Part shown: in pieces, positions 331 to 23,372 of the stretch
Layout: each line of letters starts with the position of its first letter
Numbering within the stretch: the first letter of the stretch is position 1
NCBI GenBank assembly: GCA_018827375.1
Contig: JAHJYW010000015.1
Span: 14,047 to 78,046, forward strand
DNA: 64,000 nt
Direction of reading: 5' to 3'
Source: Alphaproteobacteria bacterium
GTDB lineage: Bacteria; Pseudomonadota; Alphaproteobacteria; Caulobacterales; Hyphomonadaceae
The notes under the pieces: generated by a model
The model's input: the letters and a program-made list of their open reading frames with translations, nothing else
Told to the model about the DNA's origin: nothing
Database searches by the model: none
Translations under genes and position numbers: made by a program

Positions 331-1374
331 TCAGGGCTGTGTCGGAGCGGATGGCACCAGCAGGATCTGTCTGTCGATCTCTTCGATGGCTACGGGCAAC
401 ATGAGAACCAGATTTGCAGCGAAATCCGCAGGCGCATCGGCCTGGAACGTCCCGCTGATGCGTTCAGATGCCAAGCGCGCATCGGGCACGATAATTTTCG
501 TATCGGAATACCGGTTCAGTTCAGCCGCAGCTTCCTCCAGGGTCACATTGTCGAACTGAACGATGCCTTGGCGCCAAGCCGGGCCCGTCGTTATGTCAAC
601 TTGCGAAAGGACCTGGGTGCCATCTGCAGCAATGCTGAGCCGGTCTCCGGGCGCGAGGCGTTTGCCGGGCTGCTGGTCGGGAGCCAAGCGCTCATTGTAT
701 GGCAGGGAGTCTTCTTCAGAGGCTGTTACGTGAACCGATCCTTCGAGGAGTGTGATGGCGACTCCAGATGGCTTGAGATATACCTCAAACGCGGTTCCGA
801 TCGCGCGCGTCCGGCTGGCGCCCGCCTCCACCACGAACGGTACGCCCGTTCTGGCCACCTCGAATAAAGCCTGCCCCCGCTCCAGGCTGACATGGCGTTC
901 GCGCGAAGTGTAGAGAACTGCCATTGCGGTGTCTGTATTGAGCGTGACCACTGATCCGTCGATGAGCGTGACGCTGCGCTGTTCGCCAACGTCGCTGGCA
1001 TAGGTCAAAGGACTGGGCACTTCAGGCGCCCGGAGGTTCAGCAGGAGCGCTGCGCCCAGTGCGAGAACCGCTGCGGCCGTGACCAGCACAGCACCAACTG
1101 TCCGTCGCGAGCGGCGCGGCTTGGCGGGCGCAGGGCTGACATCGGTCGCGGCAGTGCCCGTCCTGAGCGAACGATCGATGATCGGCACGCTTGCCTCGAT
1201 TTGCCGGAAGGCGGCCGCATTGCGGGGATCGCGCTCCCAGACGCGAAAAGCATCCCAGGTAGCAAGGTCCACATCGGGTGCCTGGAGATCGCCATACCAA
1301 AGCGCAGCGGCTTCAAGCCGGCCGGTTTCCTCGTCATTTTCGTTCATCACGCGGGGTTCACTTAGCCCTGTCAT
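331..1374 (-). CDS. FecR-family anti-sigma factor / transmembrane sensor
   Basis: N-terminal AAALW..DL..W..DPRNAAAF motif, one TM helix, FecR core (GEQRSVTLIDGSVVTLNT, LERGQALFEV, AIGTAFEV), C-terminal AWRQG..F.NVTL..AAAELNRY. Confidence 0.92.
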   Translation of the reverse strand: MTGLSEPRVMNENDEETGRLEAAALWYGDLQAPDVDLATWDAFRVWERDPRNAAAFRQIEASVPIIDRSLRTGTAATDVSPAPAKPRRSRRTVGAVLVTAAAVLALGAALLLNLRAPEVPSPLTYASDVGEQRSVTLIDGSVVTLNTDTAMAVLYTSRERHVSLERGQALFEVARTGVPFVVEAGASRTRAIGTAFEVYLKPSGVAITLLEGSVHVTASEEDSLPYNERLAPDQQPGKRLAPGDRLSIAADGTQVLSQVDITTGPAWRQGIVQFDNVTLEEAAAELNRYSDTKIIVPDARLASERISGTFQADAPADFAANLVLMLPVAIEEIDRQILLVPSAPTQP

Positions 1375-1984
1375 TGCGCGGGAGGCCGGATTTCAAAAGG
1401 GCTTTCGAAACGGCTCCCAAGGCATTGGCTATATCACTCCTTACAGTGCGTGGCGATACGCCGAGACGCTCGGCAATGGCATTGTGTGTCAGGCCCTCGA
1501 GCCGGTGGAGTTCGAGCGCCTCTCTCTGGCGCGGTTTCAGCTTGGCAAGGGCGGCCTGCGCGACGACCAGGATTTGACTATCCATCAGCTGCTGCTCCGG
1601 GCTTAGGGTTCTGCGACAGGCGAGCCGCTCTTCCTCATCGCCGATATCGGTACTTTGGCGGCGGTGTTTGACATAACCTGATTTGAGGTAGTCGCGGGTC
1701 AGGTTGCGCAGGATCGTGTAAAGAAGAGGGCGCAACTCTTCCGCCGGCTTGTCTGCATAGGCGCGTTTGGCAGAGATGAAGGCTTCCTGGACCAAATCTT
1801 CAGCATCGGCCGCGCCTATGCGCAAGCGGGCGAAACGAAGGAGTTCGGTATGGAGCGACCGGTACATTTGCGCGAGCCCGGGAGAAGCGCCTGAGGCTGT
1901 TCCGATCGATAATTCCGGAGCCTGTAGCGCCATCGACAAAGAGTGGATTTCAATTTTTTCCACTGAGTCCGAACCTCCAGCCAA
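1358..1984 (-). CDS. ECF RNA polymerase sigma factor (FecI-like); true start uncertain, possibly GTG at 1963
   Basis: Region 2 (LLRFARLR..ADAEDLVQEAF) and region 4 (L.PRQREALELHRLEGLTHNAIAERLGVSPRTV); overlaps fecR start. Confidence 0.92.
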   Translation of the reverse strand: MAGGSDSVEKIEIHSLSMALQAPELSIGTASGASPGLAQMYRSLHTELLRFARLRIGAADAEDLVQEAFISAKRAYADKPAEELRPLLYTILRNLTRDYLKSGYVKHRRQSTDIGDEEERLACRRTLSPEQQLMDSQILVVAQAALAKLKPRQREALELHRLEGLTHNAIAERLGVSPRTVRSDIANALGAVSKALLKSGLPRNDRAK

Positions 1985-2051
1985 ACGCGGACTATAAGTT
2001 TTCCGATAACTTCAACGTATAGTTTAAGTTCAGTTTATTTTCCAGCGAAAA

Positions 2052-2069
2052 CATAAAGTCGACTTTATG
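2052..2069. promoter_or_regulatory. Perfect 18-bp palindrome CATAAAGTCGACTTTATG upstream of XRE1 (candidate operator)
   Basis: Read directly from the sequence; 31 bp upstream of ATG 2101, in the divergent sigma/XRE1 intergenic region. Confidence 0.6.
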
Positions 2070-2100
2070 GTATTCTGCTTTCCACAAGCCAACTTGGGGC

Positions 2101-2445
2101 ATGGACAATGCGCGAAGAGAGCAGATTGCCGCCGCCATCCGAGCGGCGCGGCGCGCCAGGGGCTTAACCCAGGAAAATTTGGCCGAGCGTATCAATCGAA
2201 CGTCTGCGAGCCTGAGCAATCTCGAACGCGCCCACGCCCTCCCCTCGCTTGATACCCTGATCCTTATCGCCGAAGCGCTGGATGTTCCGATAGACGCGCT
2301 TGTGCAAGGTCCGGCGCCGGGCCGGAAGTCACGGTCAAGGATCCGGGAAGAAAATGAGGTCATCGACCGCATTCGATCACTTTCAACAGAACACCTCAGG
2401 ATCGCTCGCATACAGATCGAGGCACTCGGCTCAATGAAGAAGTGA
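2101..2445 (+). CDS. XRE-family HTH transcriptional regulator (XRE1)
   Basis: IRAARRARGLTQENLAERINRTSASLSNLERAHALPSLDTLILIAEALDV is a canonical HTH_3. Confidence 0.9.
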   Translation: MDNARREQIAAAIRAARRARGLTQENLAERINRTSASLSNLERAHALPSLDTLILIAEALDVPIDALVQGPAPGRKSRSRIREENEVIDRIRSLSTEHLRIARIQIEALGSMKK

Positions 2446-2480
2446 CGATCAGAACTTCTCAAAAACCAGTCGGATATGTG
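2431..2480 (+). repeat. 50-bp direct repeat, copy 1 (contains last codons and stop of XRE1)
   Basis: TCAATGAAGAAGTGACGATCAGAACTTCTCAAAAACCAGTCGGATATGTG; 46/50 identical to 3198-3247. Confidence 0.9.
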
Positions 2481-2732
2481 CCGCTGTGCGCTGAAGGATT
2501 CGATCATTCGGATCCAGCTTGGCACGACTGATCGGATCCAGATACGAGGATGATCCAATACAGCGCTCTTGTGAGACGGGTATCCGCCGGCTCCGTCAGA
2601 GTTTCCGGAAGCCTTCAGCTCATGTCGGGAAAATTCTCGATACGCGTCAGACACTCTGTTTCCTCTAGCCCACAGGCCGCTGGCTTTGACACTGTTATCC
2701 GCACTGAACGATTTCAGTTCTCAATTTCTATT

Positions 2733-2781
2733 ATGTAAACTTCTTATTCTCATTATTGAGAATGTAAAGTTCTCATTTCTC
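2733..2781. promoter_or_regulatory. Tandem operator-like repeats upstream of XRE2
   Basis: ATGTAAA(C/G)TTCT(T/C)ATT at 2733 and 2762 (29-bp period), plus inverted repeat ATTCTCA-TTAT-TGAGAAT at 2746-2763. Confidence 0.5.
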
Positions 2782-2829
2782 GATATGCACAACGATTACG
2801 CCTTTCTTGTAGTGGGAAAGAGGCGCTGC

Positions 2830-3156
2830 ATGGAACTTCAGAAGATCTTAGGCGCAAACGTTCGACACCATCGTAAATCGATAGGCTGGACGCTGGAACA
2901 TCTCGCCGGTGAAGTTGGTGTTTCGCGCGAAACAATCGGCAAGATCGAACGCGGCATTTCGGCTCCTCTATTTGAAACAGTAGAAAAGATTGCGAGTGCG
3001 CTTGGTGTGTCACCGCAACTATTATTTGGTGCTGCTTCCTATCCACCGGGCGAACGGGGCCGACTACTCTCAGAAATAAACAGCATTCTCGCAAATCTGA
3101 ATGAGAAACAATTGTCTCGGGCGCAAAGGCTGTTGGATACACTCAGAGGATCCTAG
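2830..3156 (+). CDS. XRE-family HTH regulator (XRE2), controller-protein-like
   Basis: MELQKILGANVRHHRKSIGWTLEHLAGEVGVSRETIGKIERGISAPLFETVEKIASALGV; GGAAAGAGG RBS upstream. Confidence 0.9.
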   Translation: MELQKILGANVRHHRKSIGWTLEHLAGEVGVSRETIGKIERGISAPLFETVEKIASALGVSPQLLFGAASYPPGERGRLLSEINSILANLNEKQLSRAQRLLDTLRGS

Positions 3157-3197
3157 ACGGATTGGTTCGCGGTTCCAGCGAATTGATATCGAACCTT

Positions 3198-3247
3198 TCA
3201 ATGAAGAAGTGACGATCAGAATTTCTCAAAAGCCAGTCGGTTATATG
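3198..3247 (+). repeat. 50-bp direct repeat, copy 2
   Basis: TCAATGAAGAAGTGACGATCAGAATTTCTCAAAAGCCAGTCGGTTATATG; lies 767 bp after copy 1. Confidence 0.9.
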
Positions 3248-3573
3248 ATGTTCTTCTGCCCGTCCCGGAAAGAGATTGGCCGAGGAAAACACTCTCAAAG
3301 CACACAGAATCTGGTACCGGAAAGCACGAAAAATCTGACGCGTGAATGTTGGTCGCAGATCTGAATTTGAGTAAAGCCCGGCACTCGTTGGATAAGTTGG
3401 ACCCGAAATCTCTGGTTTTCCTTCGTGTTCGCTCCAGACCGAATTAATCGGTGCCGCTGCACTTGGTGCATTACGAAAGGTCACCTCACGTCTCATTGGC
3501 TTTGATCCCCTGCCTGCCGCAACTCTTTGTAATCCTAAAATGGGTTTATCCGACATTGGGATTACGAATGCAA

Positions 3574-3587
3574 CAAGTTTTTACTTG
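3574..3587. promoter_or_regulatory. Inverted repeat CAAGT-TTTT-ACTTG abutting the RBS of XRE3
   Basis: Seen directly, immediately followed by the GAGG RBS and GTG start. Confidence 0.45.
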
Positions 3588-3595
3588 AGGCTGAC

Positions 3596-3835
3596 GTGAC
3601 CAAATCCCTGAGAACAAGAGCGCACCGGGTTCTGCTCGAAGAACTGAAGGCCGCGCGACATAGCGCCGGTCTTTCCCAACAGGCAGTGGCTGACATCCTC
3701 GATGTGCCACAGTCTTATGTGGCCAAAGTCGAATTGGGTGAACGTCGCCTTGATGTGATAGAGTTCTTGAAACTTGTCGAAGCAATAAGTGGATCGTGGG
3801 GAAAAATACTGGAGAAAGTTTCTTCCACAAAATAA
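3596..3835 (+). CDS. Small XRE-family HTH regulator (XRE3)
   Basis: LKAARHSAGLSQQAVADILDVPQSYVAKVELGERRLDVIEF. Confidence 0.88.
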   Translation: MTKSLRTRAHRVLLEELKAARHSAGLSQQAVADILDVPQSYVAKVELGERRLDVIEFLKLVEAISGSWGKILEKVSSTK

Positions 3836-4206
3836 CTACAATGGGCCGGCGGCGGACTATGCTATTCGAGCGCCCCTGCACTGTTCAGCCACCCCTATAG
3901 TCAGGCCGTGTCCGCAAAAAACTCAATATACCGGGCATGCGCCACGCTTAAACCCGTGAGCGGACAATGACAGAGATGCGTTCGGGTTTGACGCCGCTTC
4001 CCAATAGGAGCCTGTATCTAGGACGTGCTCATCCGCGCGACGATAAACTGCCCTCCTCGACGCCATAACGCGCTCTTAGGCGGTACCCATCCCGCCCCGG
4101 TACGGTCTAGCCAGGCGGAAGATGGCCATGCATTTCGGTTGCATTTTATTTCTTCTTTTGGTTGTATTTCCGGCGCTACCACAGGGCATGGTGGGGAGGC
4201 GGGATC

Positions 4207-5127
4207 ATGCAAATACGTCACATCAAATCCTTCAGCGATATCCTGCAGCGCTACGACGATACAATAGGCCTATCAACGAGCGACTGGGCCTGGGAATTCC
4301 TGAGACGCAACGATCGATTCCAGTCCAATGCTCGGAGCGATACACCCGCGATATCCGGAGATTTAACAGGCGAGGCTCAGCACGTCAGACTTGCCCGGCG
4401 AAACCGGCTGGCCGAGACCTGGGGACTTCTCACGTTTCCTGACATCAATCTTCCGGCAAGCCGGACAAATGTCTTCTGGTCGGATCGCGCCTGTCCCGGA
4501 AAGGTTGCCCTCTTCGGCCGCGAGCGCGCGACCGACGAGCCAGATGGATTGTTCGACCTTGCGGTTCAACAGTGCAAGGTGACCCACCTGACCGATGGAG
4601 CTGGCCAGGCTCATCTCCTTCTGCGGGGCAGCGGATGCGTCCTGCAGGTACGCTATCGCGGCCTATCTTTCCGCTCCGGAGCGACGGACACGAAGTTTGA
4701 CGTGTCGCTGTCCTCCGTACACCGCCCCGGGGCCGAGGCGCGCGCGTTCGCCCAGGCCCGAAGGCTGCTCGGCGAAGCTGGTACACCTGTCTGGACGCGC
4801 CGCCATGTCCTATTTCGCAATGCGCTCGTGGCACTCGAGGCGCACGAAAGCGGTCTATGCTACCGCCAGACCGCCATGATTTTTTACAATGAGGCGCGCG
4901 TGACCCAGGCTTGGAATAGCGGCTCGACCGCGATGAAATCAGAAATGGCGCGGCGCCTCGCCAAAGGCCGACAGTTGCGCGATGGCGGATATTTTGAACT
5001 TCTGTCTTATGGCAGCGCTCGTCGGCCAGGCTTGTCTCCCACTCACCCCGCAGGGCATGTTGACGGGTCATCTGCTAGAGGGCCCCTTCCCCATGCACGT
5101 TCAGATCGTGTCGCTGCAACCGAATAA
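4207..5127 (+). CDS. fseA: FseA-like ICE transfer activator (DUF6499-DUF2285 in-frame fusion)
   Basis: Hallmark DWAWEFLRRN, W-G-L junction motif (AETWGLLTFPD), C-terminal DUF2285-type HTH ending LRDGGYFELL; GGAGG RBS before ATG 4207. Confidence 0.82.
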   Translation: MQIRHIKSFSDILQRYDDTIGLSTSDWAWEFLRRNDRFQSNARSDTPAISGDLTGEAQHVRLARRNRLAETWGLLTFPDINLPASRTNVFWSDRACPGKVALFGRERATDEPDGLFDLAVQQCKVTHLTDGAGQAHLLLRGSGCVLQVRYRGLSFRSGATDTKFDVSLSSVHRPGAEARAFAQARRLLGEAGTPVWTRRHVLFRNALVALEAHESGLCYRQTAMIFYNEARVTQAWNSGSTAMKSEMARRLAKGRQLRDGGYFELLSYGSARRPGLSPTHPAGHVDGSSARGPLPHARSDRVAATE

Positions 5128-5152
5128 CCAGCGGCCGGCATCGGGGATTTGA

Positions 5153-5515
5153 CTAATCGCACAAGGCCTTGAGCACCCTGACGACCCTGTCCATCTCAGC
5201 GTCAGGTATTCGGGAGATGATATGGACCGCTTGCCTGCGCGCGCGCGACGCCGGGGTTTCCAACGGTGCCTGAGCGCTCTCAAAGAATACAGCAAGCGAC
5301 ACTCCGAGCTCAGAAGCGATCGAATACAGCAAGCCCGCCGAGATCCTGTTCTTTCCCTGCTCGTATTTCTGAAGCTGCTGATGGGACAAGCCAAGCCGTC
5401 CGGCGAGTTCGACAAGTGTCAGCCCCGCTGCCCGGCGTGCAACCTTCAGCCGCGCGCTGACCCTGAGATCCATCTCGCTGGGAGCTCGGAACGCTTTTGG
5501 CTTATCATCGGTCAT
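5153..5515 (-). CDS. XRE-family HTH regulator (XRE4)
   Basis: RLKVARRAAGLTLVELAGRLGLSHQQLQKYEQGKNRISAGLL..IASELGV. Confidence 0.92.
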   Translation of the reverse strand: MTDDKPKAFRAPSEMDLRVSARLKVARRAAGLTLVELAGRLGLSHQQLQKYEQGKNRISAGLLYSIASELGVSLAVFFESAQAPLETPASRARRQAVHIISRIPDAEMDRVVRVLKALCD

Positions 5516-5537
5516 CTCGGCGCGGTCTCTCGTGTCA

Positions 5538-5552
5538 CGGATAGGCTATCCG
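5538..5552. promoter_or_regulatory. Palindrome CGGATAG-G-CTATCCG upstream of XRE4 (candidate operator)
   Basis: 7-1-7 inverted repeat 22 bp upstream of the XRE4 start; further ATCCG/CGGAT half-sites near 5592, 5616 and 5632. Confidence 0.5.
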
Positions 5553-5781
5553 CAAGGACAGCCTCCGCTCACTCAACGACATAGCGCGCGTATCCGGCAG
5601 GAAATTTTTAATAGTCGGATGCGTCAGTCGCCATCCGTGGACGCTGGCGATTATACGGCGGCCGAACGGGATAAAGTGTTCGCGCCAGTCACATCAGCAA
5701 CAGGCCTCTTCAACCCAACCGAGACAAAGGAAGCGAAGTGCCCTGCTGTGCCTCTCACAAGCTACGGCGAGGGAGGCAGAC

Positions 5782-6003
5782 ATGCGAATCAAAATGTGGA
5801 GTTTCGACAACGTTCTGATTGACCTGGAGGACCGAGACGTATCGGTGAAGGCCGTTCACGCGCTCAACGGCACCGAAATTACAGTCGCGTTCAGGTTGGG
5901 CGAGAAACAGGTCAGAGGTGAGGCCGGCGAATTGCGAAAGCGAATCGAGATCCTCGCGGCAGACCGCCTGCTTGACCTGGCGTCCTTTCTCGACAGTTTC
6001 TGA
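5782..6003 (+). CDS. Hypothetical 73-aa protein divergent from XRE4
   Basis: Strong GAGGGAGG RBS, protein-like beta/alpha composition, no recognised family. Confidence 0.6.
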   Translation: MRIKMWSFDNVLIDLEDRDVSVKAVHALNGTEITVAFRLGEKQVRGEAGELRKRIEILAADRLLDLASFLDSF

Positions 6004-6342
6004 ATGGCGTCCGGGCGGCGCTCGGACCTGCCGGCACAACACCCACATGCGACCAATCCATAATACCAATGATCCGCCGCCCAAACGGTTGGCCCTATCC
6101 GGATCACGCATATCCAATTGCGCAGCCAGGTCGAAAGTCCGAGAGGCTCAAGCCTGATATCACACCACGCTTAGTCCCTGCTCGACACGTGCCGTTTTGG
6201 ACCTGGCCCGGCGCGGCCCGGGCGGGGCAGAAAAAGTCTTAACGCCTGTAACGGAAAGACGGGGATCTAGAGCGTGACTCCCCGCGCTTTGCCTTGTGCG
6301 GCTTTCTTCAGGCACGGCCTTCCCGAAGGGGTTGGGAATGGC

Positions 6343-6579
6343 ATGACCGGAAAGCGCGCCACAATGCACACCAGCCGTCCTGTTGAGTCTCCGTTCCTGA
6401 CGACGCGCGAAGCTGCCAACTATCTTCGCGTGTCGGAGCGAACGCTTCAGAACTGGCGCTATGCGAACCTCGGTCCGATCTATCGCAAACATGTCGGTAT
6501 CGTCGTCTACCATGTCGACGACCTGCTGAGATTCTCGGAGTCCGGCCACCGACCGGGCAAGGCACACTATGACACCTAA
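6343..6579 (+). CDS. rdfS: RdfS/AlpA-like excisionase (HTH_17)
   Basis: SPFLTTREAANYLRVSERTLQNWR...GP.YRK.G..VVYHVDDL; first gene of the transfer-initiation operon. Confidence 0.8.
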   Translation: MTGKRATMHTSRPVESPFLTTREAANYLRVSERTLQNWRYANLGPIYRKHVGIVVYHVDDLLRFSESGHRPGKAHYDT

Positions 6580-7003
6580 TATGACACGCGTGTCCCTGCG
6601 CCAGGAAGATACGGGTCTGTCCACACGTCTTCTCTTTGGCAATCCATCCTCCACGTATGATATTCGCCCTGGCGTCTCGATCGCGGCCTTCCAACAGGAT
6701 GCCGTCTTTGGATACGAGCGCAGGCGATCCAATTACCGATCTGTGGACGGATGGCAGATATTCATTCTCAAAGCAGCCGGCCCGGGAGACTTGGCGAGCA
6801 GGATCCGCGGGATCCAGCCGGGCGCGGAAATCCTGCTGTCTGCGCTCAATCACTTTCATGCGCGCCGCGCAACGCACGCCCTTGACCTCGTCTGGCAGCA
6901 TACCGAGCCTCACACGATATCCACGTCGTTCTGGCTGCGCTTCTTCACACAACTGCAGGCCGGACTCGACACCTCGGACCTGCTGAGGCGCCAGGTCTGG
7001 TGA
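6569..7003 (+). CDS. DUF2840 family protein
   Basis: Position between rdfS and traF; motifs LLFG.P, F..DAVFGY.R..SN, ILKA..PG, I.PGAEILL. Confidence 0.7.
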   Translation: MTPNMTRVSLRQEDTGLSTRLLFGNPSSTYDIRPGVSIAAFQQDAVFGYERRRSNYRSVDGWQIFILKAAGPGDLASRIRGIQPGAEILLSALNHFHARRATHALDLVWQHTEPHTISTSFWLRFFTQLQAGLDTSDLLRRQVW

Positions 7004-7668
7004 TGCTGACAAAACGCCCGCCCGCGCTATACCTCACCCTCATCGGGATTGGTACCCTCTGGATCGGAAGCGTCATCCGTCCGGACCCTTTCCTCTTCTA
7101 TAATCCAAGCGCAAGTGCGCCAGTCGGCTGGTACAGGATCCTGCCCGAAAGACCCGTGGCGCGCGGAGATCTCGTCGCAGCCAGACTACCCGAAGCAGCG
7201 GGGATCCTCGCCTCTGCTCGCGGATACCTGCCCGGCGACATACCGGTAATAAAGACGGTATGGGCCGTCCCGGGTGATCTGATCTGCATGGACGACACGA
7301 GCCTTGAGGTCACCGACAGGCCACCTCTTGCGCTTCGCCACCAGGATCTGTCCGGTCGTGCCCTGACGCCCTGGCGACAGGGCTGCACCCGGCTTCGACC
7401 GGACGAAGTCCTTATCATCTCCAACAGGACCGCGGACTCTTTCGACGGCCGGTATTTCGGTCCGGTGCGGACAGGTGACATTATCGGCAGGGTCGCCTTC
7501 ATGGGAAATCTCCCCATCACGATGCCGCCCGCCTGCGCCAGACAGGACATATGCTCGCATCAAATCAGGTCGCTTCTGGCTTATCCGCTCCTACTGATAA
7601 AGCGGGCGGGAAGCACGCGTGCAACGCGTCCATCTCGCACCTGGCGCAATGCGCGCGACGCCGGATAA
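7000..7668 (+). CDS. traF: TraF, S26-family conjugal pilin-processing peptidase (C-terminally extended)
   Basis: YNPSASAPVGWY, GYLP..IPVIK.V.A.PGD.IC, DSFDGRYFGPV. Confidence 0.88.
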   Translation: MMLTKRPPALYLTLIGIGTLWIGSVIRPDPFLFYNPSASAPVGWYRILPERPVARGDLVAARLPEAAGILASARGYLPGDIPVIKTVWAVPGDLICMDDTSLEVTDRPPLALRHQDLSGRALTPWRQGCTRLRPDEVLIISNRTADSFDGRYFGPVRTGDIIGRVAFMGNLPITMPPACARQDICSHQIRSLLAYPLLLIKRAGSTRATRPSRTWRNARDAG

Positions 7669-9547
7669 TCCGTTTGCCCCCCGACTGGGGCGGCTACGAT
7701 CCACGCGTCCTCGCGGACGGCAAGGAACCTATCTTTCCCGGATGGCAAAGGCATTCTCGATCTATGGCGGCCCACGTCGCTCACAGGTCGGGCTGCGCCG
7801 CAGGAGCGGGGACCGCAATGGACGCCGCCGGGTCATCGTCAAAACGCGCACGGTCCGCATGGCGGCATCAAGCCGGTCCGCGCTGATGAACCATATTGGT
7901 TATATCAGGCGGGATTCGGCCCTTTCAAATGAGGATCGTGGCCAGCTCTTCAACCGTGACAGCGACACAGCCGATAGCAGGCCATTTGTCGAGGGCGCCT
8001 CCACGGACCGCCATCATTACCGGTTCATCATATCGCCCGAGGAAGGCGCCGAACTGGCTGATCTCAAGCCCTTTGTCCGCGATCTGGTCGGCCAGATGGA
8101 GAAAGACCTCGCAACACGGCTTGAATGGATTGGCGCCGAGCATCACGACACAGGGCGACCTCATGTCCACCTCATTGTCCGTGGCAGGCATCAGGACGGG
8201 CAGGATCTGAAGATACCCCAAGAGTATCTCTATCATGCCGTTCGGGAACATGCCGAAGACCTGATCACGCTCGAACTCGGTCCCGAGACCGCGCTCGAGG
8301 TGGACCGCAAGCGCCAGGCTGAACCTGCCTCTGAACGCCTCACACGCATCGATTCCGTCCTGGAAAGGCAGTCCGATCCGGGCGGCTTGTTTGAACTTAA
8401 AAGCAGCCCGGTCGATCTGCGCGCGCAACATGCAGCTCGGCTGAGAACGCTGGAACGCCTCGGCCTTGCAGACAAGCGCGGCTCAGGGCGATGGCTTCTC
8501 GATCCCGATTTCAAGACAGTCCTGACATCCCTCGGCGAGCGCCAGGACAGGTTCGACATCCTGAACCACGCCATTGCCAGGACAGGCGGCCGGCGCATTG
8601 ACGCCGATGGCGTATTTGACAGCGCTGACCCTGATGCCCGCAGCGTGACGGGCGCCGTGCTTGAGACCGGCAAGCATGGGATCATGCAGGATCGGCCATA
8701 CATTGTCATTGATGGTCTCGACGGACGCGCGGTATTCGTTGAAACTGGCAGCACTGAGCCGGCAAACTTGCGCCAGGACATGATCATAAGTCTCGCGCCG
8801 GCCAACAGAGCGCCGGAGGCGACTGACCGCGCCATTGACCAGATCGCACGCAAGAATGGCGGACTGTATTCAGCAGCCTTTCACCAGAAGGACGATCCGC
8901 GCGTGACCGCTGAAACGCTGAGGCGGCACGTCATGCGGCTCCAGGCAATGGTCCGGCCGGCAAACCTGCACCGTTCATCAGATGCCGTCTGGACCATTCC
9001 AGACGACTATCTTCAAAAAGTGCAAACCTGCGAGCCCGGGGATGCCCGGATGCGCAAGCCGTTTATCCGGATTGAGTCCACGCTGAGCCTTTCGGCCCAG
9101 ATCAAAGCGCTCGGACTGACCTGGATAGACACATTCGTGCCGTCCGCTGACATGCTGCACGGATTTGGCAATCAGACCGCAGACGCCCAATTGATGCGAC
9201 GCACCTTCCTCGCCGAAATCGGCATCGCACCGGATAATGGCAAGCCACTGACCCCGGAGCACAAGGCTGAACTTATCCGCAGGGACCTGGCGCAGGCGGG
9301 TCAGACCCTGAGACAGACCATAGGCAAGCCCTACGCCCCTTCACCGACACGAGGAGAGGTCGCCGGGATCTACCGTGGACCCGTGGCCAGGATCAGCGGA
9401 AAATTTGCTGTCATCGAGCGCGCGCTTGATTTCACGATCCTGCCATGGCGTGACGGACTCGAGCGTAGCCGCGCCATGGCGGTATCCGTCCGGCTGCAAT
9501 CTGGATCAGCATCCTGGACCACAGCTCAGCGCGGTCTCACGATCTGA
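7649..9547 (+). CDS. rlxS: MOBP/VirD2-like relaxase with DUF3363-type C-terminus (RlxS-like)
   Basis: RRVIVKTR, H..YI.RD, HHYRFIISPE, AEHHDTGRPHVHLIVRG (HUH motif). Confidence 0.92.
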   Translation: MRATPDNPFAPRLGRLRSTRPRGRQGTYLSRMAKAFSIYGGPRRSQVGLRRRSGDRNGRRRVIVKTRTVRMAASSRSALMNHIGYIRRDSALSNEDRGQLFNRDSDTADSRPFVEGASTDRHHYRFIISPEEGAELADLKPFVRDLVGQMEKDLATRLEWIGAEHHDTGRPHVHLIVRGRHQDGQDLKIPQEYLYHAVREHAEDLITLELGPETALEVDRKRQAEPASERLTRIDSVLERQSDPGGLFELKSSPVDLRAQHAARLRTLERLGLADKRGSGRWLLDPDFKTVLTSLGERQDRFDILNHAIARTGGRRIDADGVFDSADPDARSVTGAVLETGKHGIMQDRPYIVIDGLDGRAVFVETGSTEPANLRQDMIISLAPANRAPEATDRAIDQIARKNGGLYSAAFHQKDDPRVTAETLRRHVMRLQAMVRPANLHRSSDAVWTIPDDYLQKVQTCEPGDARMRKPFIRIESTLSLSAQIKALGLTWIDTFVPSADMLHGFGNQTADAQLMRRTFLAEIGIAPDNGKPLTPEHKAELIRRDLAQAGQTLRQTIGKPYAPSPTRGEVAGIYRGPVARISGKFAVIERALDFTILPWRDGLERSRAMAVSVRLQSGSASWTTAQRGLTI

Positions 9548-9757
9548 CACGCGCAAAACACGCGTGGCGCCTGGGCAGACGAGGCCCTGACCCCTGGGCG
9601 AGGTGCAGGGCGCCTCCCGGATAAAAAAAGTCACGCTGCAATCGCTACGCTATTTAACCCGAAAGGTGCGCAATTGCGCGCGATATGACCTTTATTGCCC
9701 TGTTTTTACATAATTTTATCTCTTCCCCAAAAGAGCTCCTCTCGCGCAAATAGGCGC
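9548..9757. other. Candidate oriT region between relaxase and traG
   Basis: Non-coding gap with palindrome GCGCAATTGCGC nested in AAAGGT...ACCTTT; oriT of ICEMlSym lies directly downstream of rlxS. Nic site not identified. Confidence 0.35.
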
Positions 9758-11737
9758 ATGAAACCGCACACAAACCTGTCCTGGCAAGTCCTCAGTGTCG
9801 CCGCGATCATCGTCCTGGCGCTTTGGACAGCAACCCAATCGACCGCAGCGTCCCTCGGCTGGTCCAGACGCCTCGGCGAGCCGTGGTTTGTGCTCTTCGA
9901 CTGCCCCGTCTATGCGCCATGGGCCTTTTTTGGCTGGTGGTTTGCCTTTGATGCCTACGCGCCCGACATATTTGATCGCGGCGGAAAGATTGCTGCCTCA
10001 GGCGGCCTGCTCGCCTTTTTGTTCGCTGTCAGCTCCTCCATCCTGCGGGCCCGTTGGAACAAGCATGTCACAACCTTCGGCTCATCCCGCTGGGCGATGA
10101 AACAGGATATGCGCAAAGCCGGCATCCTCGGACCTGGCGGCGTATTTCTGGGCGTGACCTCTGGCGCGTATCTGCGCCATGATGGGCCTGATCACGTGAT
10201 CGCGTTTGCTCCGACACGTTCAGGCAAAGGCGTCGGCCTCGTCATTCCGACGCTCCTGTCCTGGACCCATTCTGCCGTCGTCCACGATATCAAGGGCGAG
10301 AACTGGCAGGTCACCGCCGGATGGCGGGCCCTTTTCTCCGACTGTGTCCGGTTTGACCCGACGGACAAGACCTCAGCGCGATTCAATCCCTTGATGGAAG
10401 TCCGCAAGGGCGATCGGGAAGTCAGTGACGTTCAGAATATTGCCGATATCCTGGTGGATCCCGAAGGCGTCCTTGAACAGCGCAATCACTGGGAGAAGAC
10501 GGCCCACTCCCTCCTTGTCGGCGTCATCCTCCACATCCTTTATGCCGACAGTGAAAAAACGCTCGCACGCGCCGCCAGCTTTCTCTCCGATCCTGACAGA
10601 TCGTTCCGCGCCACGCTCGCGATCATGATGCATACAAATCACGTCGGCACCGATGACGCTCCGCGCACCCATCCCGTCGTCGCGCAATGCGCCCGCGAAC
10701 TGATGAACAAGTCTGAGAATGAACTCTCCGGCGTCCTCTCGACAGCCATGAGCTTCCTGTCCCTTTACCGCGACCCGGTCATCGCCGAGGTCACGTCTCA
10801 ATGCGATTTTCGCATACGCGATCTGGTGGAGGGTACGCGCCCCCTCTCCCTGTTCCTTGTGGTACCTCCATCCGACCTCTCGCGCACGAAGCCCCTCATC
10901 CGGCTATTGCTAAACCAGATCGGCCGACGGCTGATGGAACACGAAGGCGGATCTGACCGGCGCCGCGTGCTGTTTCTTCTGGACGAGTTTCCTGCCCTCG
11001 GTCGTCTCGAATTCTTCGAGAGCGCCCTTGCCTACATGGCCCATTATCGCCTGAAGGCCTTTCTGATCACCCAATCCCTCAACCAGATCGAAAAGGCCTA
11101 TGGCCCGGCCAATGCGATCCTCGACAATTGTCATGTCAGGGTGGCTTTTGCGACCAATGACGAGCGAACGGCCAGACGGATTTCCGATGGCCTGGGGACC
11201 AAGACCGAACAACGCGCGATGAAGAATTATGCCGGCCACCGGCTCGCACCCTGGCTGTCACACAAAATGGTATCGCGCCAGGAGACGGCCCGGCAGCTTC
11301 TGACCCCGGGCGAAGTCATGCAACTGCCCGCCTCTGATGAACTCATTCTCCTCTCTGGCTGCCCGCCAATCCTCGCAAAGAAACTTCGCTATTACGCTGA
11401 TCGCAATTTCATTGAGCGTCTCAGGACGCCTCCGCTCCAGGACAAGGGACTTGCCGCTCCCCGCAGCGATGACTGGAAGGGCCATGTCCGCACGGTCCAT
11501 GAAGATCTGCTGGACACGGATCGTGTAGCCGATCTGTCGGCTACTTCGGTCGCCAACGCGGTCGACAATGGCGGTCATGGTTTTGAACAGGCCGGCAAGC
11601 CGGTCCGTCCGGCGCAGCCCCGGCGCCCTGCCCAACCGCATCGACCTTTGCAGGCCGGTCTGTTTGACGCGATCCAGATTGCGGACGGCATCGAGACCAC
11701 AAGAGGCGTAGACCTGACAGGTCGGGGCGACAGATGA
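9758..11737 (+). CDS. traG: Type IV coupling protein TraG/VirD4
   Basis: N-terminal TMs, TTFGSSRWA, APTRSGKGVG (Walker A), LFLLDEFPALG (Walker B). Confidence 0.95.
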   Translation: MKPHTNLSWQVLSVAAIIVLALWTATQSTAASLGWSRRLGEPWFVLFDCPVYAPWAFFGWWFAFDAYAPDIFDRGGKIAASGGLLAFLFAVSSSILRARWNKHVTTFGSSRWAMKQDMRKAGILGPGGVFLGVTSGAYLRHDGPDHVIAFAPTRSGKGVGLVIPTLLSWTHSAVVHDIKGENWQVTAGWRALFSDCVRFDPTDKTSARFNPLMEVRKGDREVSDVQNIADILVDPEGVLEQRNHWEKTAHSLLVGVILHILYADSEKTLARAASFLSDPDRSFRATLAIMMHTNHVGTDDAPRTHPVVAQCARELMNKSENELSGVLSTAMSFLSLYRDPVIAEVTSQCDFRIRDLVEGTRPLSLFLVVPPSDLSRTKPLIRLLLNQIGRRLMEHEGGSDRRRVLFLLDEFPALGRLEFFESALAYMAHYRLKAFLITQSLNQIEKAYGPANAILDNCHVRVAFATNDERTARRISDGLGTKTEQRAMKNYAGHRLAPWLSHKMVSRQETARQLLTPGEVMQLPASDELILLSGCPPILAKKLRYYADRNFIERLRTPPLQDKGLAAPRSDDWKGHVRTVHEDLLDTDRVADLSATSVANAVDNGGHGFEQAGKPVRPAQPRRPAQPHRPLQAGLFDAIQIADGIETTRGVDLTGRGDR

Positions 11738-12204
11738 AAACACGCATCCAGGCGGCGATCTCTCCGGAAAACCTTGCGCGCCTGCAAGCCATGGCTGCGC
11801 GCCCGAGCCTGTCAGAGAGCAAAGTCGTCGACATGGCCCTGGCAGCCTTCTTCGCTGGCGATACCGACGACCAGAGGGACGCGGCCATCGCACGGCGCCT
11901 CGACCGTATGACCCGCCAGTTTGGCCGCCTTGAGCGCAATGACCTGATACTCACAGAGACACTCTCGACCTTTGTCAGGTATTTCCTGACCGTCACACCC
12001 CCTGTGCCCGTCAGCCAGCTCGATGCGGCCCGCGCAAAGGGCGACCTGCGGTTCGATCTCTTTGTACGTCAGGTCGCCGAGGCGCTGCAGTCCGGTGACC
12101 GTATCCTGCACAATGCCATCGAGGATTTCACGGCAGAGTGTGGCGATTTTGCCTCCGACCCGGAACCCGGGCGCCAGGACGCGCAGCGTGATAGCGATGC
12201 GTGA
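11734..12204 (+). CDS. CopG/RHH-like protein of the trb operon (Msi031-like)
   Basis: Position between traG and trbB; RRLDRMTRQ..RLERN..IL.ETL..FVRYFLT.TPP. Confidence 0.8.
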   Translation: MKTRIQAAISPENLARLQAMAARPSLSESKVVDMALAAFFAGDTDDQRDAAIARRLDRMTRQFGRLERNDLILTETLSTFVRYFLTVTPPVPVSQLDAARAKGDLRFDLFVRQVAEALQSGDRILHNAIEDFTAECGDFASDPEPGRQDAQRDSDA

Positions 12205-13222
12205 GTCTGTCTCCCGGTCCCGCGCGCGTGACATGCTGGCGACGGCCTTCGGACCTGTCATCATGAGCGCGCTCAATGATCCTTGTGTGATCGAGATCAT
12301 GCTTAATCCCGACGGCCATCTCTGGATTGAGCGTCAGGGCGCGCAGCAGACAGACTGTGGCGGCCTCATGGCTGCTGAACATGCCGAGCGCGCGATCAGG
12401 CTGGTTGCAACACTTGGTGGCCGCGAACTCACGCCCACGAGCCCGATTGTCTCTGCCGAACTCCCCATGGGCGGCGAGCGTTTCGAGGCCGTGATGCCGC
12501 CTGTCGCACCCGGTCCCTGCTTTTCAATCCGCCGTCCTGCGCAGCGCATCATCCTGCTCGATGATTATGTCACCTCAGGCACCATGTCGGCGCATTTTGC
12601 CAGCGCCCTGCGCAAGGCCGTGCGTGAGCGCGCGAACGTGCTGGTCGTCGGTGGCGCAGGGTCCGGCAAGACGACGCTCGCCAATGCCCTGCTTGCGGAG
12701 ATCGCCCGCACCGGCGACCGGCTGGTCATCCTGGAAGACACGCGCGAACTCGTCTCGACAGCGCCGAACCTTGTGCGCTTGCGCACGCAACCCGGGTCGG
12801 TCACGCTCGCAGAGCTCGTCCGCTGCACGCTGCGCCTGCGTCCTGACCGGATCATCATTGGCGAGGTCCGCGGCGCCGAAGCCCTCGACATGCTGAAGGC
12901 CTGGAATACAGGCCATCCGGGCGGCATCGCCACCCTGCATGCCAATTCTGCCCTTGGCGGCCTCTCGCGGCTTGAACAGCTCATTGGCGAGGGCGCTGTC
13001 CGGATCCCGCACGAACTGATCGCCGAGACAATCGACTGCGTTGTCTACATCAGCCGGCGCGCGGGGGCACATCGCGTCGAAACCGTGGCCCTCATGAACG
13101 GGCTGGGTTGCGACGGTTACGACCTCAGCCCTGTCCAGCCGAGCTTTGAACTCGTGCTGCCGAGCCTGCCTTTCGCTGAACCCCTTCATTCAACCGCTCC
13201 TGAAAGGACACATCCCAAATGA
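12197..13222 (+). CDS. trbB: P-type conjugative ATPase TrbB
   Basis: EIMLNPDG.LW, GGAGSGKTT, ILEDTREL, LRLRPDRIIIGEVRG, WNTGHPGG. Confidence 0.95.
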   Translation: MRESVSRSRARDMLATAFGPVIMSALNDPCVIEIMLNPDGHLWIERQGAQQTDCGGLMAAEHAERAIRLVATLGGRELTPTSPIVSAELPMGGERFEAVMPPVAPGPCFSIRRPAQRIILLDDYVTSGTMSAHFASALRKAVRERANVLVVGGAGSGKTTLANALLAEIARTGDRLVILEDTRELVSTAPNLVRLRTQPGSVTLAELVRCTLRLRPDRIIIGEVRGAEALDMLKAWNTGHPGGIATLHANSALGGLSRLEQLIGEGAVRIPHELIAETIDCVVYISRRAGAHRVETVALMNGLGCDGYDLSPVQPSFELVLPSLPFAEPLHSTAPERTHPK

Positions 13223-13530
13223 ACAAGGATCATGTAAAATTACTCGCCCTCGCAGGGCTCATGGCCGCGCTCTCTCTACCGGCCCACGCCGCTGGATCAG
13301 GTATGCCATGGGAAGCCCCGCTGCAATCGGTCCTGGAATCCATTGAAGGTCCTGTATCGAAGATACTCGCCACGATCGTCATCATCCTGACCGGCCTCGG
13401 CCTTGCCTTCGGCGAGAGCGGCGGAGGCATGCGCAAGCTCCTGCAGATTGTCTTTGGCCTGTCGATCGCATTCGCTGCGACCTCGTTCTTCCTCTCTTTC
13501 TTTTCGTTCGGCGGCGGGGCGACCCTCTGA
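13219..13530 (+). CDS. trbC: TrbC/VirB2 pilin
   Basis: AGSGMPWEAPL..VL.SIEGPV, two TM helices. Confidence 0.93.
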   Translation: MNKDHVKLLALAGLMAALSLPAHAAGSGMPWEAPLQSVLESIEGPVSKILATIVIILTGLGLAFGESGGGMRKLLQIVFGLSIAFAATSFFLSFFSFGGGATL

Positions 13531-13802
13531 TGACGAACACCCGCGCCCTGCCCGATGGCTACTGCGTCCCGGTGCATCAATCCCTGACAGCGCCCATCCT
13601 GCTGGCAGGTGCCCCGCGATTGGCCACCATTGCCAATGGCACGCTCGCAGCAGGGCTCGGCGTCGGCCTGCAGCTCTGGGGGGTCGGGCTCGTATTCTGG
13701 ATCATTGCGCAGGGCATCTGCGTGTTTGCAGCGCGCCGCGACCCGCAATTTACCGAAGTCCTCGTTCGGCATATCCGCCACAGGAGCTATTACGAATGTT
13801 GA
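13530..13802 (+). CDS. trbD: TrbD/VirB3
   Basis: PVHQSLT.PILLAGAPR..AI.NGTLAA, A.RDPQF.EV. Confidence 0.92.
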   Translation: MTNTRALPDGYCVPVHQSLTAPILLAGAPRLATIANGTLAAGLGVGLQLWGVGLVFWIIAQGICVFAARRDPQFTEVLVRHIRHRSYYEC

Positions 13803-16225
13803 ATCTCGCTGAATACCGCCGGCGGCCCACTTCGCTCGCCGACTATCTGAAATGGGCCTGTCTCGTCGCCCCCGGCATTGTCCTCAACAAGGATGGCAGC
13901 CTCCAGCGCACGATTGCCTATCGTGGACCTGACCTTGAAAGCGTCACGCCCGAAGAACGGGTCTCGGTGACGGCCCGTATGAATAATCTTTTGCGCCGGT
14001 TCGGATCCGGATGGGCCCTTCACATCGAAGCAAGCCGCAGGCCCTCGGTCACCTATCCCACGAACGCCTGGCGCGACGGCGCCGCCTGGCTCGTCGATGA
14101 AGAACGCCGCGCTGCCTTCGAAGAAGATGGGCGGCATTTCGAAACCGATTGCTTCCTGACCCTGACCTGGATGGCACCCGCTGATCGAACCGCCCGGATC
14201 GAACGTCTTTTCATCGAGGATCCGGCGGATGCCGCGACAGCTTTCTGGAGCGAACATATTGGCTATTTCGAAACAGAAACGTCGAGGGCATGCGACCTGA
14301 TGGCCGACATGATGCCGGAGGCCCGTTTCCTCGACGATGCCGAGACACTGACCTATTTGCATGCCTGCATTTCGGTGAACCGTCACGTGCTTGAGGCACC
14401 TGACCTTCCCATGTGCCTTGATGCCCTGCTTGCCGATACGCCCCTGACCGGCGGCCTTGTTCCGAGGCTGGGCGAGGAGACATTGAAAGTGGTGACGATA
14501 AATGGCTTCCCGGCGACCGGCGAGCCAGGTCTCCTGTCCGAACTCGACCAGCTTGGATTTGCCTATCGCTGGGTCACGCGGTTCCTTCCGCTGGACAGGT
14601 CAGACGCTGAAAAGACATTGAACGCCTATGTCCGGAACTGGTTTGCCAAACGCCGTTCGCTCACGTCCTACCTGCGCGAAATTCTCACCAGCGAACCTGC
14701 CACGCTCATCAATAACGACGCCGGCAACCAGGCGGCCGATGCCGATCAGGCCCTGCAGGCGCTCGGCGCCGGCCATGTCGCCTTCGGTTACTGCACGATC
14801 GCTGTCGTGGTGCGCCACCGCGATCCGGATTTGGCAGAAGATCAGATGCGCGCCATTGAACGGGTGGTCAGGGCACGCGGCTTCGCCTGCGTCTGCGAGA
14901 GCGTCAATGCCGTTGAAGCCTGGCTTGGAACGCTTCCGGGTGAGGCCAATGCCAATGTCCGCCAGCCCCTTCTGAATACCGTAAACCTCGCCCATATGGC
15001 ACCGCTCTCCTCGGTCTGGGCAGGGCCCGAGCGCAATGCACACCTCGCAGGTCCGCCGCTGCTGATGGCGCGGTCGGCCAGTTCGACCCCTTTCAGGCTC
15101 GTCACACACCAGGGTGATGTCGGGCACATGATGGTGGTGGGACCGACCGGGTCCGGCAAGTCGGTGCTGCTGTCCCTGCTCGCGCTCCAGTTTCGCCGCT
15201 ACAGCCAGGCCCAGGTCTTCATCTTCGACAAGGGGGCATCGGCGCGCTGCGCGACATTGGCCCTTGCGGGCACCTGGTACGCGCTCGGCCTTGACGGCGA
15301 TATCGCATTCCAGCCGCTGCGGGACATAGACAGCGAGGCCGGACGTGCAGTGGCGCAGACCTGGGTTCTCGGTCTTGTCACGCAGGAAAGCGTCGCCGTA
15401 ACCCCGCAGGTCAAGCAGGCCGTCTGGAGCGCGCTGCAAAGTCTTGGCGCCGCGCCGGCCAGGCAACGCACGCTGAGCGGCCTTGCCGCGCTCCTGCAAA
15501 CACCTGAGCTGCGACAGGCCCTGGAACCCTATACGCTTGCGGGTCCCTATGGCGCCCTGCTTGACGCAGACACCGATCAGCTTGCCGGCGGCGATGTTCT
15601 CTGTTTCGAAATGGAGGAGTTGATGCATGACAGGCGACTTGCCGCTCCCGTGCTTGCCTATCTTTTTGCGCGTCTCGACGCGCGGTTCGATGGCCGGCCC
15701 ACCTTGCTTGTCCTCGACGAGGCCTGGCTCTTTCTGGATCATCCGATGTTTGCCGGACGATTGCGCGACTGGCTGAAGACCTTGCGCAAGAAGAATGTCT
15801 CGGTCGTATTTGCAACGCAAAGCCTTGCAGACATTGCCACGAGCTCAATTGCACCGACCCTGGTCGAAAGCGCTCCAACCCGCATCTTCCTCGCGAACGC
15901 CCGCGCAGAGGAGCCCGCGCAACAGGCTGCCTACCAGGACTTTGGCCTCAACCCGCGCCAGGTGGAGCTGATCGCGCGTGCGACGCCAAAGCGCGACTAT
16001 TATGTCCAGTGTCCGGACGGAAATCGCCTGTTCGACCTCGAACTCGGACCTGTCGCGCACGCGTTATGCGCATCTGGCTCAAAGGCCGATCACGCGCTCA
16101 TGACAGACATCCTGGCGACAACCAGCCCGCAGCACTTTGCGTCAGCCTGGCTCCAGGCACGCGGTCTTGGCTGGGCAGGCGAACTGATAAGAGCGGAGGA
16201 CGCCCTGTCATGCGCCGCCGAATAA
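13796..16225 (+). CDS. trbE: TrbE/VirB4 ATPase
   Basis: MLNLAEYR start, VLNKDGSLQ, GPTGSGKS, LVLDEAW. Confidence 0.95.
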   Translation: MLNLAEYRRRPTSLADYLKWACLVAPGIVLNKDGSLQRTIAYRGPDLESVTPEERVSVTARMNNLLRRFGSGWALHIEASRRPSVTYPTNAWRDGAAWLVDEERRAAFEEDGRHFETDCFLTLTWMAPADRTARIERLFIEDPADAATAFWSEHIGYFETETSRACDLMADMMPEARFLDDAETLTYLHACISVNRHVLEAPDLPMCLDALLADTPLTGGLVPRLGEETLKVVTINGFPATGEPGLLSELDQLGFAYRWVTRFLPLDRSDAEKTLNAYVRNWFAKRRSLTSYLREILTSEPATLINNDAGNQAADADQALQALGAGHVAFGYCTIAVVVRHRDPDLAEDQMRAIERVVRARGFACVCESVNAVEAWLGTLPGEANANVRQPLLNTVNLAHMAPLSSVWAGPERNAHLAGPPLLMARSASSTPFRLVTHQGDVGHMMVVGPTGSGKSVLLSLLALQFRRYSQAQVFIFDKGASARCATLALAGTWYALGLDGDIAFQPLRDIDSEAGRAVAQTWVLGLVTQESVAVTPQVKQAVWSALQSLGAAPARQRTLSGLAALLQTPELRQALEPYTLAGPYGALLDADTDQLAGGDVLCFEMEELMHDRRLAAPVLAYLFARLDARFDGRPTLLVLDEAWLFLDHPMFAGRLRDWLKTLRKKNVSVVFATQSLADIATSSIAPTLVESAPTRIFLANARAEEPAQQAAYQDFGLNPRQVELIARATPKRDYYVQCPDGNRLFDLELGPVAHALCASGSKADHALMTDILATTSPQHFASAWLQARGLGWAGELIRAEDALSCAAE

Positions 16226-16935: not shown

Positions 16936-16939
16936 CGTC

Positions 16940-18265: not shown

Positions 18266-18266
18266 G

Positions 18267-18953: not shown

Positions 18954-18966
18954 GAGCATCTATCCC

Positions 18967-21224: not shown

Positions 21225-21346
21225 CACAACACGATCTCAGAAGCGCAAGAGCACGCTCAAGATCATCGGCACGCGATTGCACCAAAGACACGTCACTGAT
21301 TCCAGGTTCGTGTGCCACACGGCAGCGGTCTGCATCAGCAATGGTC

Positions 21347-23370: not shown

Positions 23371-23372
23371 GC

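Follow-up and report, generated by a model that had tools for sequence, protein, structure and literature searches.

The stretch of DNA analysed here (hereafter the window) is 64,000 nucleotides long and corresponds to G000:C3:14047-78046, part of the 109-kb contig C3 in a 3.6-Mb, 50-contig genome whose closest public relative is Hyphomonas oceanitis SCH89. It holds part of a conjugative island in which genes for FseA, a putative activator of transfer, and for the excisionase-type protein RdfS lie among four regulator genes of the XRE type (XRE1 to XRE4). The element is of the same lineage as ICEMlSymR7A-type integrative and conjugative elements (ICEs), with a DUF3363 relaxase and Trb type IV secretion in a Hyphomonas-like host. 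The original prediction took the region 1985-6579 for a new ICE transfer-control circuit, where an XRE/operator array would feed a frameshift-free FseA with no antiactivator or quorum-sensing genes in sight. As far as the genes go, this description holds: the four XRE genes lie where it placed them, each with an HTH_3 match above threshold (Pfam, used for family domain matches throughout), and so do the single-frame FseA, upstream of the rdfS operon, and the cluster rdfS–DUF2840–traF–rlxS–traG–trb. Each XRE gene has its own upstream site, conserved before homologues in the case of XRE1, XRE2 and XRE3, not in that of XRE4, and 1985-6579 is free of LuxR, LuxI and DUF2285-only genes. The same gene arrangement is present in other public runs, and therefore the region is not an assembly artefact. 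What appears, from the sequence, to distinguish the locus from known systems is that QseM is absent and that a conserved HTH_3 gene stands where qseM would be expected. The features concerned are the following.

3532-3562: double site of XRE3, ATCC-N7-GGTT (3532-3546) and ATCC-N7-GGAT (3548-3562), centres 16 bp apart
3596-3835, forward strand: XRE3, 79 amino acids, controller (C)-protein-like HTH_3 (E = 1e-9; Pfam and PDB sequence matches)
4207-5127, forward strand: fseA homologue, 306 amino acids, DUF6499 and DUF2285 in one frame (Pfam; AWEFLRRN and WGL motifs in frame)
5153-5515, reverse strand: XRE4, 120 amino acids, HTH_3 (Pfam, E = 4e-13) with a C-terminal extension
5538-5552: palindrome CGGATAG-G-CTATCCG, 23 bp upstream of XRE4, a weak operator candidate
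5782-6003, forward strand: ORF73, a conserved 73-amino-acid protein (conserved family), not DUF2285
6236-6281: rdfS promoter region with candidate FseA box, TTAAC...GTAACG-N19-CGTGAC-TCC (alignment of rdfS upstream regions)
6343-6579, forward strand: rdfS, 78 amino acids, excisionase-type HTH_17 (Pfam; ATG at 6343)
6569-21224, forward strand: DUF2840, traF (S26 peptidase), rlxS (DUF3363), traG, a CopG-like open reading frame (ORF) and trbB-I (family matches)

The most likely start of the fseA homologue is the ATG at 4207, which has GGAGG before it; the stop lies at 5127. Its product carries the Trans_reg_dom/DUF6499 domain at the N-terminus (PF20109, E = 2e-8) and RovC_DNA-bd/DUF2285 at the C-terminus (PF10074, E = 2e-8, residues 210-281 of the ORF as read from TTG 4162); the translation holds DWAWEFLRRND, and ETWGLL stands in frame at the junction of both domains. 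AWEFLRRN and WGL are the marks by which FseA proteins are recognized (PMC10359603). The +1 programmed ribosomal frameshift is absent, 4207-5127 being one open frame. Such a form had been put forward as part of a new circuit, yet in itself it is ordinary and already published: the frameshift occurs in about 61% of FseA homologues, and about 39% of 4709 curated ones are free of it (PMC10359603). Within the same bacterial family, FseA homologues are found in 44 of 121 genomes, and nearly all of 82 FseA matches read through without stops. Between the window's FseA and the two copies in H. oceanitis, identity is 82-90% (codon changes 32 synonymous to 29 nonsynonymous), and FseA lies directly upstream of rdfS in nine other loci of the family. 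No inverted repeat with arms of at least 6 bp was found in the 371 bp upstream of fseA (3836-4206), and a scan for sigma-70 promoters and terminators over 1900-6700 gave results below shuffle expectation. Two FseA-like genes in tandem, of 278 and 283 amino acids, are present in at least seven genomes of the family (e.g., G071:C3:35614-37306, G052:C23:108262-109954 and G114:C1:1885672-1887364); about 120 bp separate them, and each product has about 41-42% identity to the window FseA.

The target of this activator would be the rdfS promoter. RdfS is 92% identical to its H. oceanitis copy, and the half-sites before its gene are GTAACG (6248-6253) and CGTGAC (6273-6278). A motif-anchored alignment of 13 rdfS upstream regions of the family (the window and 12 relatives) has one common layout, consisting of (GG)TTAA, a GT..CG half-site, 18-19 nt, a CG..AC half-site and TCC/TTC. 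It lies 65-95 nt upstream of rdfS with the proximal half-site 65-70 nt before the ATG, and in the published FseA box, which adjoins the -35 element of PrdfS about 62-95 nt upstream of rdfS, the proximal half-site is 62-67 nt before the start (PMC10359603). Behind rdfS all genes of the conjugation set are intact (DUF3363 relaxase, TraG, TrbB/E/L/F/G/I, RdfS), and the cluster has 90-94% nucleotide identity to contig 2 of H. oceanitis.

The antiactivator QseM, said to be missing from the visible region, is missing well beyond it. Pfam PF10074 matched three FseA-sized genes only in the whole genome and no DUF2285-only, QseM-like gene, and a hidden Markov model built from 47 FseA homologues, run unfiltered over all ORFs of at least 35 amino acids in C3:1-40000, matched FseA alone. 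Several small ORFs were considered and dismissed. For ORF73, examined as a hidden QseM, Pfam, NCBIfam and the PDB gave no match, and the predicted fold is three strands plus a helix; moreover, its homologues occur on ICE-like contigs without being specifically beside FseA, and it is frameshifted in a related metagenomic locus (L118). The 137-amino-acid ORF on the reverse strand at 3143-3556, opposite XRE3, matches no family and changes in a neutral-looking pattern; its only homologue is the H. oceanitis counterpart, from which it differs by an indel and with an amino acid identity of about 82% at 90% nucleotide identity, and it is probably noncoding. A 220-amino-acid ORF antisense to XRE1 has no family match either.

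XRE4 is the regulator most closely tied to FseA. It is convergent with fseA over a gap of 25 bp and divergent from ORF73 and rdfS, has a weak sequence similarity to the 434 repressor, and its codon changes (5 synonymous to 1 nonsynonymous) are those of a conserved protein. The convergent XRE4-FseA pair is found in six other loci, at XRE4 identities of 54-99%:

H. oceanitis (L007): XRE4 99%, FseA 90%; no conjugation genes after the pair
L118: XRE4 83%, FseA 82%; 25-bp gap, then ORF73 and rdfS as in the window
L010: XRE4 58%, FseA 55%
L121: XRE4 60%, FseA 62% over the 40 amino acids read; FseA ends with the contig
L123/L124: XRE4 54%, FseA 51%; 26-bp gap
L126: XRE4 57%; convergent with FseA

At a further locus (L119) both genes stand 5.4 kb apart with an AbiE insert between them, and XRE4 paralogues of 49% identity or less have no link to FseA. 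Of all four XREs, XRE4 thus appears to be the only one co-inherited with FseA, and it is probably a repressor. In strain R7A, qseM is convergent with fseA, and its promoter sends antisense transcripts into fseA (PMC8789080); here it is XRE4 that holds this position. Its arrangement with ORF73 and rdfS resembles that of CI-type repressor genes that diverge from an excision operon. What is in effect a natural XRE4 knockout exists in H. oceanitis contig 2, as a 1,024-bp deletion (L008 8918-8977 against window 5128-6207).

ORF73, between XRE4 and rdfS, belongs to a family of 73-80-amino-acid proteins, of which 1.8 billion clusters yielded 29 representatives. Its model is of three strands and then a long helix (pLDDT 74.7), not a helix-turn-helix; that it could be a Cro-like partner of XRE4 is speculation. 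Homologues on other ICE-like contigs stand beside integrases, a DUF3363 relaxase, ImuB or HipA. A paralogue (65%) in the same genome, at G000:C2:197105-197320, has an integrase, a serine recombinase and tRNA-Met in its vicinity, so that ORF73 is a marker of several integrative elements of this genome.

XRE3 is of a different kind. Its PDB sequence matches are 3eus (1e-15) and the C proteins C.AhdI (9e-5) and C.BclI (1e-4), its codon changes are 3 synonymous to 1 nonsynonymous, and the double site lies about 34 bp upstream of its start, where 3548-3562 is the sole perfect copy of ATCC-N7-GGAT in the window. The same double site is found at the same place before four XRE3 homologues (L097, L098, L099 and L104) of 44-68% identity. 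QseC2 of ICEMlSymR7A is a C.EcoRV-type C protein binding O2L and O2R, each with ATCC-N7-GGAT (PMC8789080). XRE3 shares with QseC and QseC2 the small C-protein-like helix-turn-helix and two adjacent palindromic operators; the control of a divergent qseM, typical of those two, is not found, as the genome has no qseM. From the published description of the QseC2 motif and the C-protein matches, XRE3 appears to be a QseC2-class regulator.

XRE1 and XRE2, further to the left, stand in another context, which comprises the following features.

331-1984, reverse strand: FecR-like anti-sigma gene (331-1374; Pfam FecR, DUF4880 and FecR_C) and ECF sigma factor gene (1358-1984; Sigma70_r2, r4_2 and ECF)
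2052-2069: operator-like 18-bp perfect palindrome of XRE1, CATAAAGTCGACTTTATG (inverted-repeat scan)
2101-2445, forward strand: XRE1, 114 amino acids, HTH_3 (Pfam, E = 3e-14)
2431-2480: 50-bp direct repeat, copy 1, which holds the XRE1 stop codon; left edge of the XRE2 insert
2718-2775: XRE2 promoter region, two copies of a 29-bp tandem repeat, TGTAAAsTTsT...TTCTC
2830-3156, forward strand: XRE2, 108 amino acids, HTH_3 (Pfam, E = 3e-15)
3198-3247: 50-bp direct repeat, copy 2 (46/50); right edge of the XRE2 insert

XRE1 diverges head-to-head from the ECF sigma-FecR pair. The 16-bp core of its palindrome (2053-2068) is single in the window at up to three mismatches (0.02 chance matches expected), and ATAAAGTnnACTTTAT is conserved before a 68% XRE1 homologue at L088, G112:C4, in the same genus and with the same ECF sigma-FecR layout. 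Its codon changes against H. oceanitis are 8 synonymous to 3 nonsynonymous. XRE1 probably regulates both the divergent ECF sigma/FecR module and its own gene. XRE2 lies on a 767-bp insert (2431-3247) between the 50-bp repeats; other public runs have the insert, and H. oceanitis has one copy of the repeat and no XRE2. It is 80% identical in amino acids to the product of C21:2121-2441 in the same genome and 76% to that of a gene on a metagenomic contig (L122), both of them head-to-head with an ECF sigma-FecR pair. The tandem promoter repeat is conserved before these two homologues, and a palindrome in the same region (ATTCTCA-N4-TGAGAAT, 2746-2763) is not. XRE2 thus looks like an inserted paralogue of ECF-sigma-associated XREs. 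The layout of FecR and ECF sigma genes diverging from an XRE gene recurs at G000:C21, G112:C4 and L122, with no FseA gene within about 1.5 kb at the first two and only remnants of FseA nearby at the third. Because such genes recur beside ECF sigma/FecR without nearby FseA, XRE1 and XRE2 are best read as regulators of the ECF-sigma cargo module and not of transfer.

The number of XREs is anything but constant, since the same rdfS-trb backbone comes with four of them here, one in L118 and none in H. oceanitis contig 2. The latter equals the window minus 5183-6206, i.e., XRE4 and ORF73 are lost and 30 nt of the XRE4 3′ end are left. H. oceanitis contig 20, conversely, has three XREs and no conjugation genes, in the order XRE1-XRE3-FseA-XRE4-ORF73 followed by HipA. 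As XRE number varies on one backbone, the four-XRE array is not a conserved unit. An operator tying the XREs together was also looked for and had to be discarded: no XRE operator recurs at PfseA or PrdfS, and none is shared between the promoters.

A circuit devoid of quorum-sensing genes, as originally proposed, is not what the island as a whole contains. The caveat that its left part might carry traR, traI or qseM was justified in one half, for family searches find luxR and luxI there, and QseM was not found. From gpsA, the left end of the island holds genes for XRE5, a PhyH dioxygenase, LuxI, LuxR and a TPR protein. The fifth XRE (XRE5, C3:1002-1394) is an XRE4 paralogue, 40% identical; luxI is at C3:2577-3275 (PF00765) and luxR at C3:3303-4085 (PF03472 and GerE), and luxR, luxI, PhyH and XRE5 run in one direction beside gpsA (C3:1002-4085, L006). 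The luxRI genes are about 15 kb from fseA, and no lux-box-like palindrome common to the luxRI region and the fseA upstream region was found. The same left block exists in H. oceanitis, where LuxI lies at an equal distance and is 94% identical; in addition, H. oceanitis has a second TPR-luxR-luxI-PhyH copy (76-79% in amino acids; L079). Between luxRI and fseA lies a lasso-peptide-type cargo cluster (G000:C3:5950-16030, being L006 5950-13977 plus window 331-1984), with genes for a transglutaminase-like protein, an asparagine-synthase-like cyclase, an S9 isopeptidase, an STN-domain TonB receptor, FecR and the ECF sigma factor.

The limits of the island were drawn from identity to H. oceanitis in 500-bp steps along the contig. 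On the left, identity is 85% in gpsA, climbs to 94-98% at about C3:1000 and stays high as far as window position 6173. On the right, the match to H. oceanitis contig 2 begins at window position 6207 and ends with the stop codon of trbI at 21214; the H. oceanitis contig then goes straight into an ECH gene that is 84% identical to the window from 24270 onward. From this shift and this junction the island spans ~34 kb (about C3:900-35260), beginning immediately to the right of gpsA and ending where trbI ends. For the adjoining core flank on C11, identity to H. oceanitis is 87.5%. The two species thus share 94-98% identity over the island and 85-88% over core DNA, and this excess implies recent horizontal movement. 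The comparison with H. oceanitis contig 20 was made over G000:C3:1-20219, and the block exchanged lacks any recombinase.

Relaxase, coupling protein, type IV secretion and recombination directionality factor of an ICE are all present in the element. On the other hand, no tyrosine (PF00589) or serine (PF00239) recombinase was found on contig C3, and the island yielded neither a tRNA gene nor a pair of attachment (att) repeats. Any excision would therefore depend on an integrase acting in trans, and to speak of ICE transfer control overstates what the element can do alone. The 3′ half of a tRNA-Thr(CGT) at 21357-21394, which shares 36 of 38 positions with the native gene on C43, was discarded as a right end: it has no partner, the native tRNA-Thr is unoccupied, and the segment carrying it is absent from H. 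oceanitis. This 3-kb segment (21215-24269) also includes a gene for a 549-amino-acid Fic protein. On the metagenomic contig L121, genes for an SNase, an XRE4-like protein and FseA lie beside ECH, MocA, PLC-DUF4332 and acyl-CoA dehydrogenase genes, as in the right flank of the window, which suggests a shared insertion hot spot.

Taken together, we lean towards a composite explanation, with slightly more confidence than doubt: the region would be the regulatory junction of an FseA/RdfS-type conjugative island, with parts of separate histories. By homology, the single-frame FseA would bind the inverted-repeat box about 65-95 nt upstream of rdfS and turn on rdfS, DUF2840, traF and rlxS. XRE4 would most likely hold the transfer operon off, be it through repression on the side of ORF73/rdfS, through transcription that converges on fseA, or through both; its position is that of qseM in ICEMlSymR7A and also that of the CI-type maintenance repressor in many ICEs. 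XRE3 would be an autoregulator equivalent to QseC2 and, being upstream of and co-directional with fseA, may gate it on and off. XRE1 and XRE2 would be partners of ECF-sigma/FecR (TonB-receptor/lasso-peptide) cargo modules and lie outside transfer control. It is tempting to go further and suppose that XRE4 has replaced the QseM, frameshift and QseC layers, forming with ORF73 a CI/Cro-like switch and setting, with XRE3, the transfer-competent fraction without quorum sensing; to us this is an unlikely extension.

Several observations weigh against the composite explanation. The XRE4 palindrome has no conservation before XRE4 homologues, searches of PfseA and PrdfS gave no XRE4-type site, and XRE3 homologues elsewhere are not adjacent to FseA (one adjoins an integrase). 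Homology upstream of fseA with the XRE-free H. oceanitis copy begins 159 bp before the ATG and, for this reason, fseA probably has its own promoter. The conserved inverted-repeat layout before rdfS is probably the FseA box, matched by position and architecture only, and its half-sites are spaced by 18-19 bp here versus 15-16 bp as published. On the diverged contig L122, remnants of FseA again lie next to an ECF sigma factor gene and to XRE2-like and XRE4-like genes, which leaves some probability that XRE1 and XRE2 are linked to FseA after all. Finally, the public runs listed with the region are all labelled DNA, and mostly metagenomes.

The same neighbourhood in L122 is one argument for the alternative closest to the original prediction, namely that all four XREs and their operators make up one cascade or multistable switch, which replaces TraR/acyl-homoserine lactone signalling and QseM over FseA. 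The four XRE genes are, besides, intact, under purifying selection where this is testable and each equipped with its own site, and tandem C-protein genes do form higher-order switches in ICEMlSymR7A (PMC8789080). We nevertheless find a single cascade very improbable, given that close relatives have four, three, one or no XREs (XRE2 is missing in H. oceanitis, whose contig 2 module is XRE-free), that XRE1 and XRE2 types are found with ECF sigma/FecR and without FseA, and that no operator is common to the promoters or present at PfseA or PrdfS. Nor would an XRE switch be new as such, tandem C-protein genes and a two-XRE epigenetic switch being known on such ICEs (PMC8789080). Hardly better founded in our view is activation of fseA by the island's LuxR/LuxI as in ICEMlSymR7A, possibly via XRE5 or XRE4 acting in a QseC-like manner. 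It would account for luxR, luxI and the XRE4 paralogue all lying within the island, in a block conserved with it in H. oceanitis. The distance from fseA and the lasso-peptide/TonB-receptor cluster in between speak against it, however, as does the lack of a palindrome common to both upstream regions, that of fseA being without inverted repeat, and the second lux copy of H. oceanitis suggests that the pair travels with the cargo block.

One may also doubt that there is any transfer left to control. If the element were a decaying, immobile remnant, with XREs that serve the cargo or are relics, the lack of a recombinase on the 109-kb contig, of a tRNA gene and of an att repeat pair would be expected, and so would the tRNA-Thr 3′ half without partner next to an unoccupied native tRNA. 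The H. oceanitis block XRE1-XRE3-FseA-XRE4-ORF73, retained without conjugation genes behind it, and the fast evolution of FseA (32 synonymous to 29 nonsynonymous changes) point the same way. Intact conjugation genes throughout, island identity so far above that of the core as to imply recent horizontal movement, and purifying selection on XRE3 and XRE4 fit such decay badly, and we regard it as unlikely.

FseA-type activators control thousands of proteobacterial conjugative elements, and their upstream control is worked out for ICEMlSymR7A only. The locus described here suggests that neither QseM nor the frameshift is needed for the activator/rdfS core to run, with the convergent XRE4 as a specific, conserved candidate for a replacement brake, and the QseC2-type operator before XRE3 is conserved well enough for a direct test. 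It also illustrates how counting adjacent XRE genes overstates a circuit, since two of the four seem to belong to an ECF-sigma cargo module. The weight of the variant is lowered by the island having no integrase.

In comparison with known systems, XRE3 is alike in size and sequence to the controller proteins of type II restriction-modification systems (C.AhdI, C.BclI and C.EcoRV); like them, it has two adjacent palindromic predicted operators just upstream, and fseA, downstream and co-directional, takes the position of the endonuclease gene. Unlike in those loci, there are no restriction or methylase genes, and the XRE3-fseA gap is 371 bp. XRE4 is an HTH_3 protein like the CI/Cro-type repressors (SetR of SXT, ImmR of ICEBs1 and the 434 repressor) and, as in their loci, diverges from an operon opening with a small ORF and an excisionase gene; unlike these repressors, it is without an S24 peptidase domain, and no ImmA-type partner or inducing signal is evident. 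From ICEMlSymR7A of Mesorhizobium japonicum R7A the locus differs in lacking the +1 frameshift, a DUF2285-only antiactivator and an integrase, in having an HTH_3 gene (XRE4) convergent with fseA where the other has qseM, in its luxRI genes being distant and not visibly linked, and in the place of fseA, which is immediately upstream of rdfS here and about 60 genes away there. Both elements have in common, however, a DUF6499 plus DUF2285 activator upstream of an rdfS-traF-rlxS operon with an inverted-repeat box (here a candidate one) in its promoter, a C-protein-like regulator (XRE3 here, QseC2 there) with a double ATCC-N7-GGAT operator, a small regulator gene convergent with fseA, and luxR and luxI on the same island.

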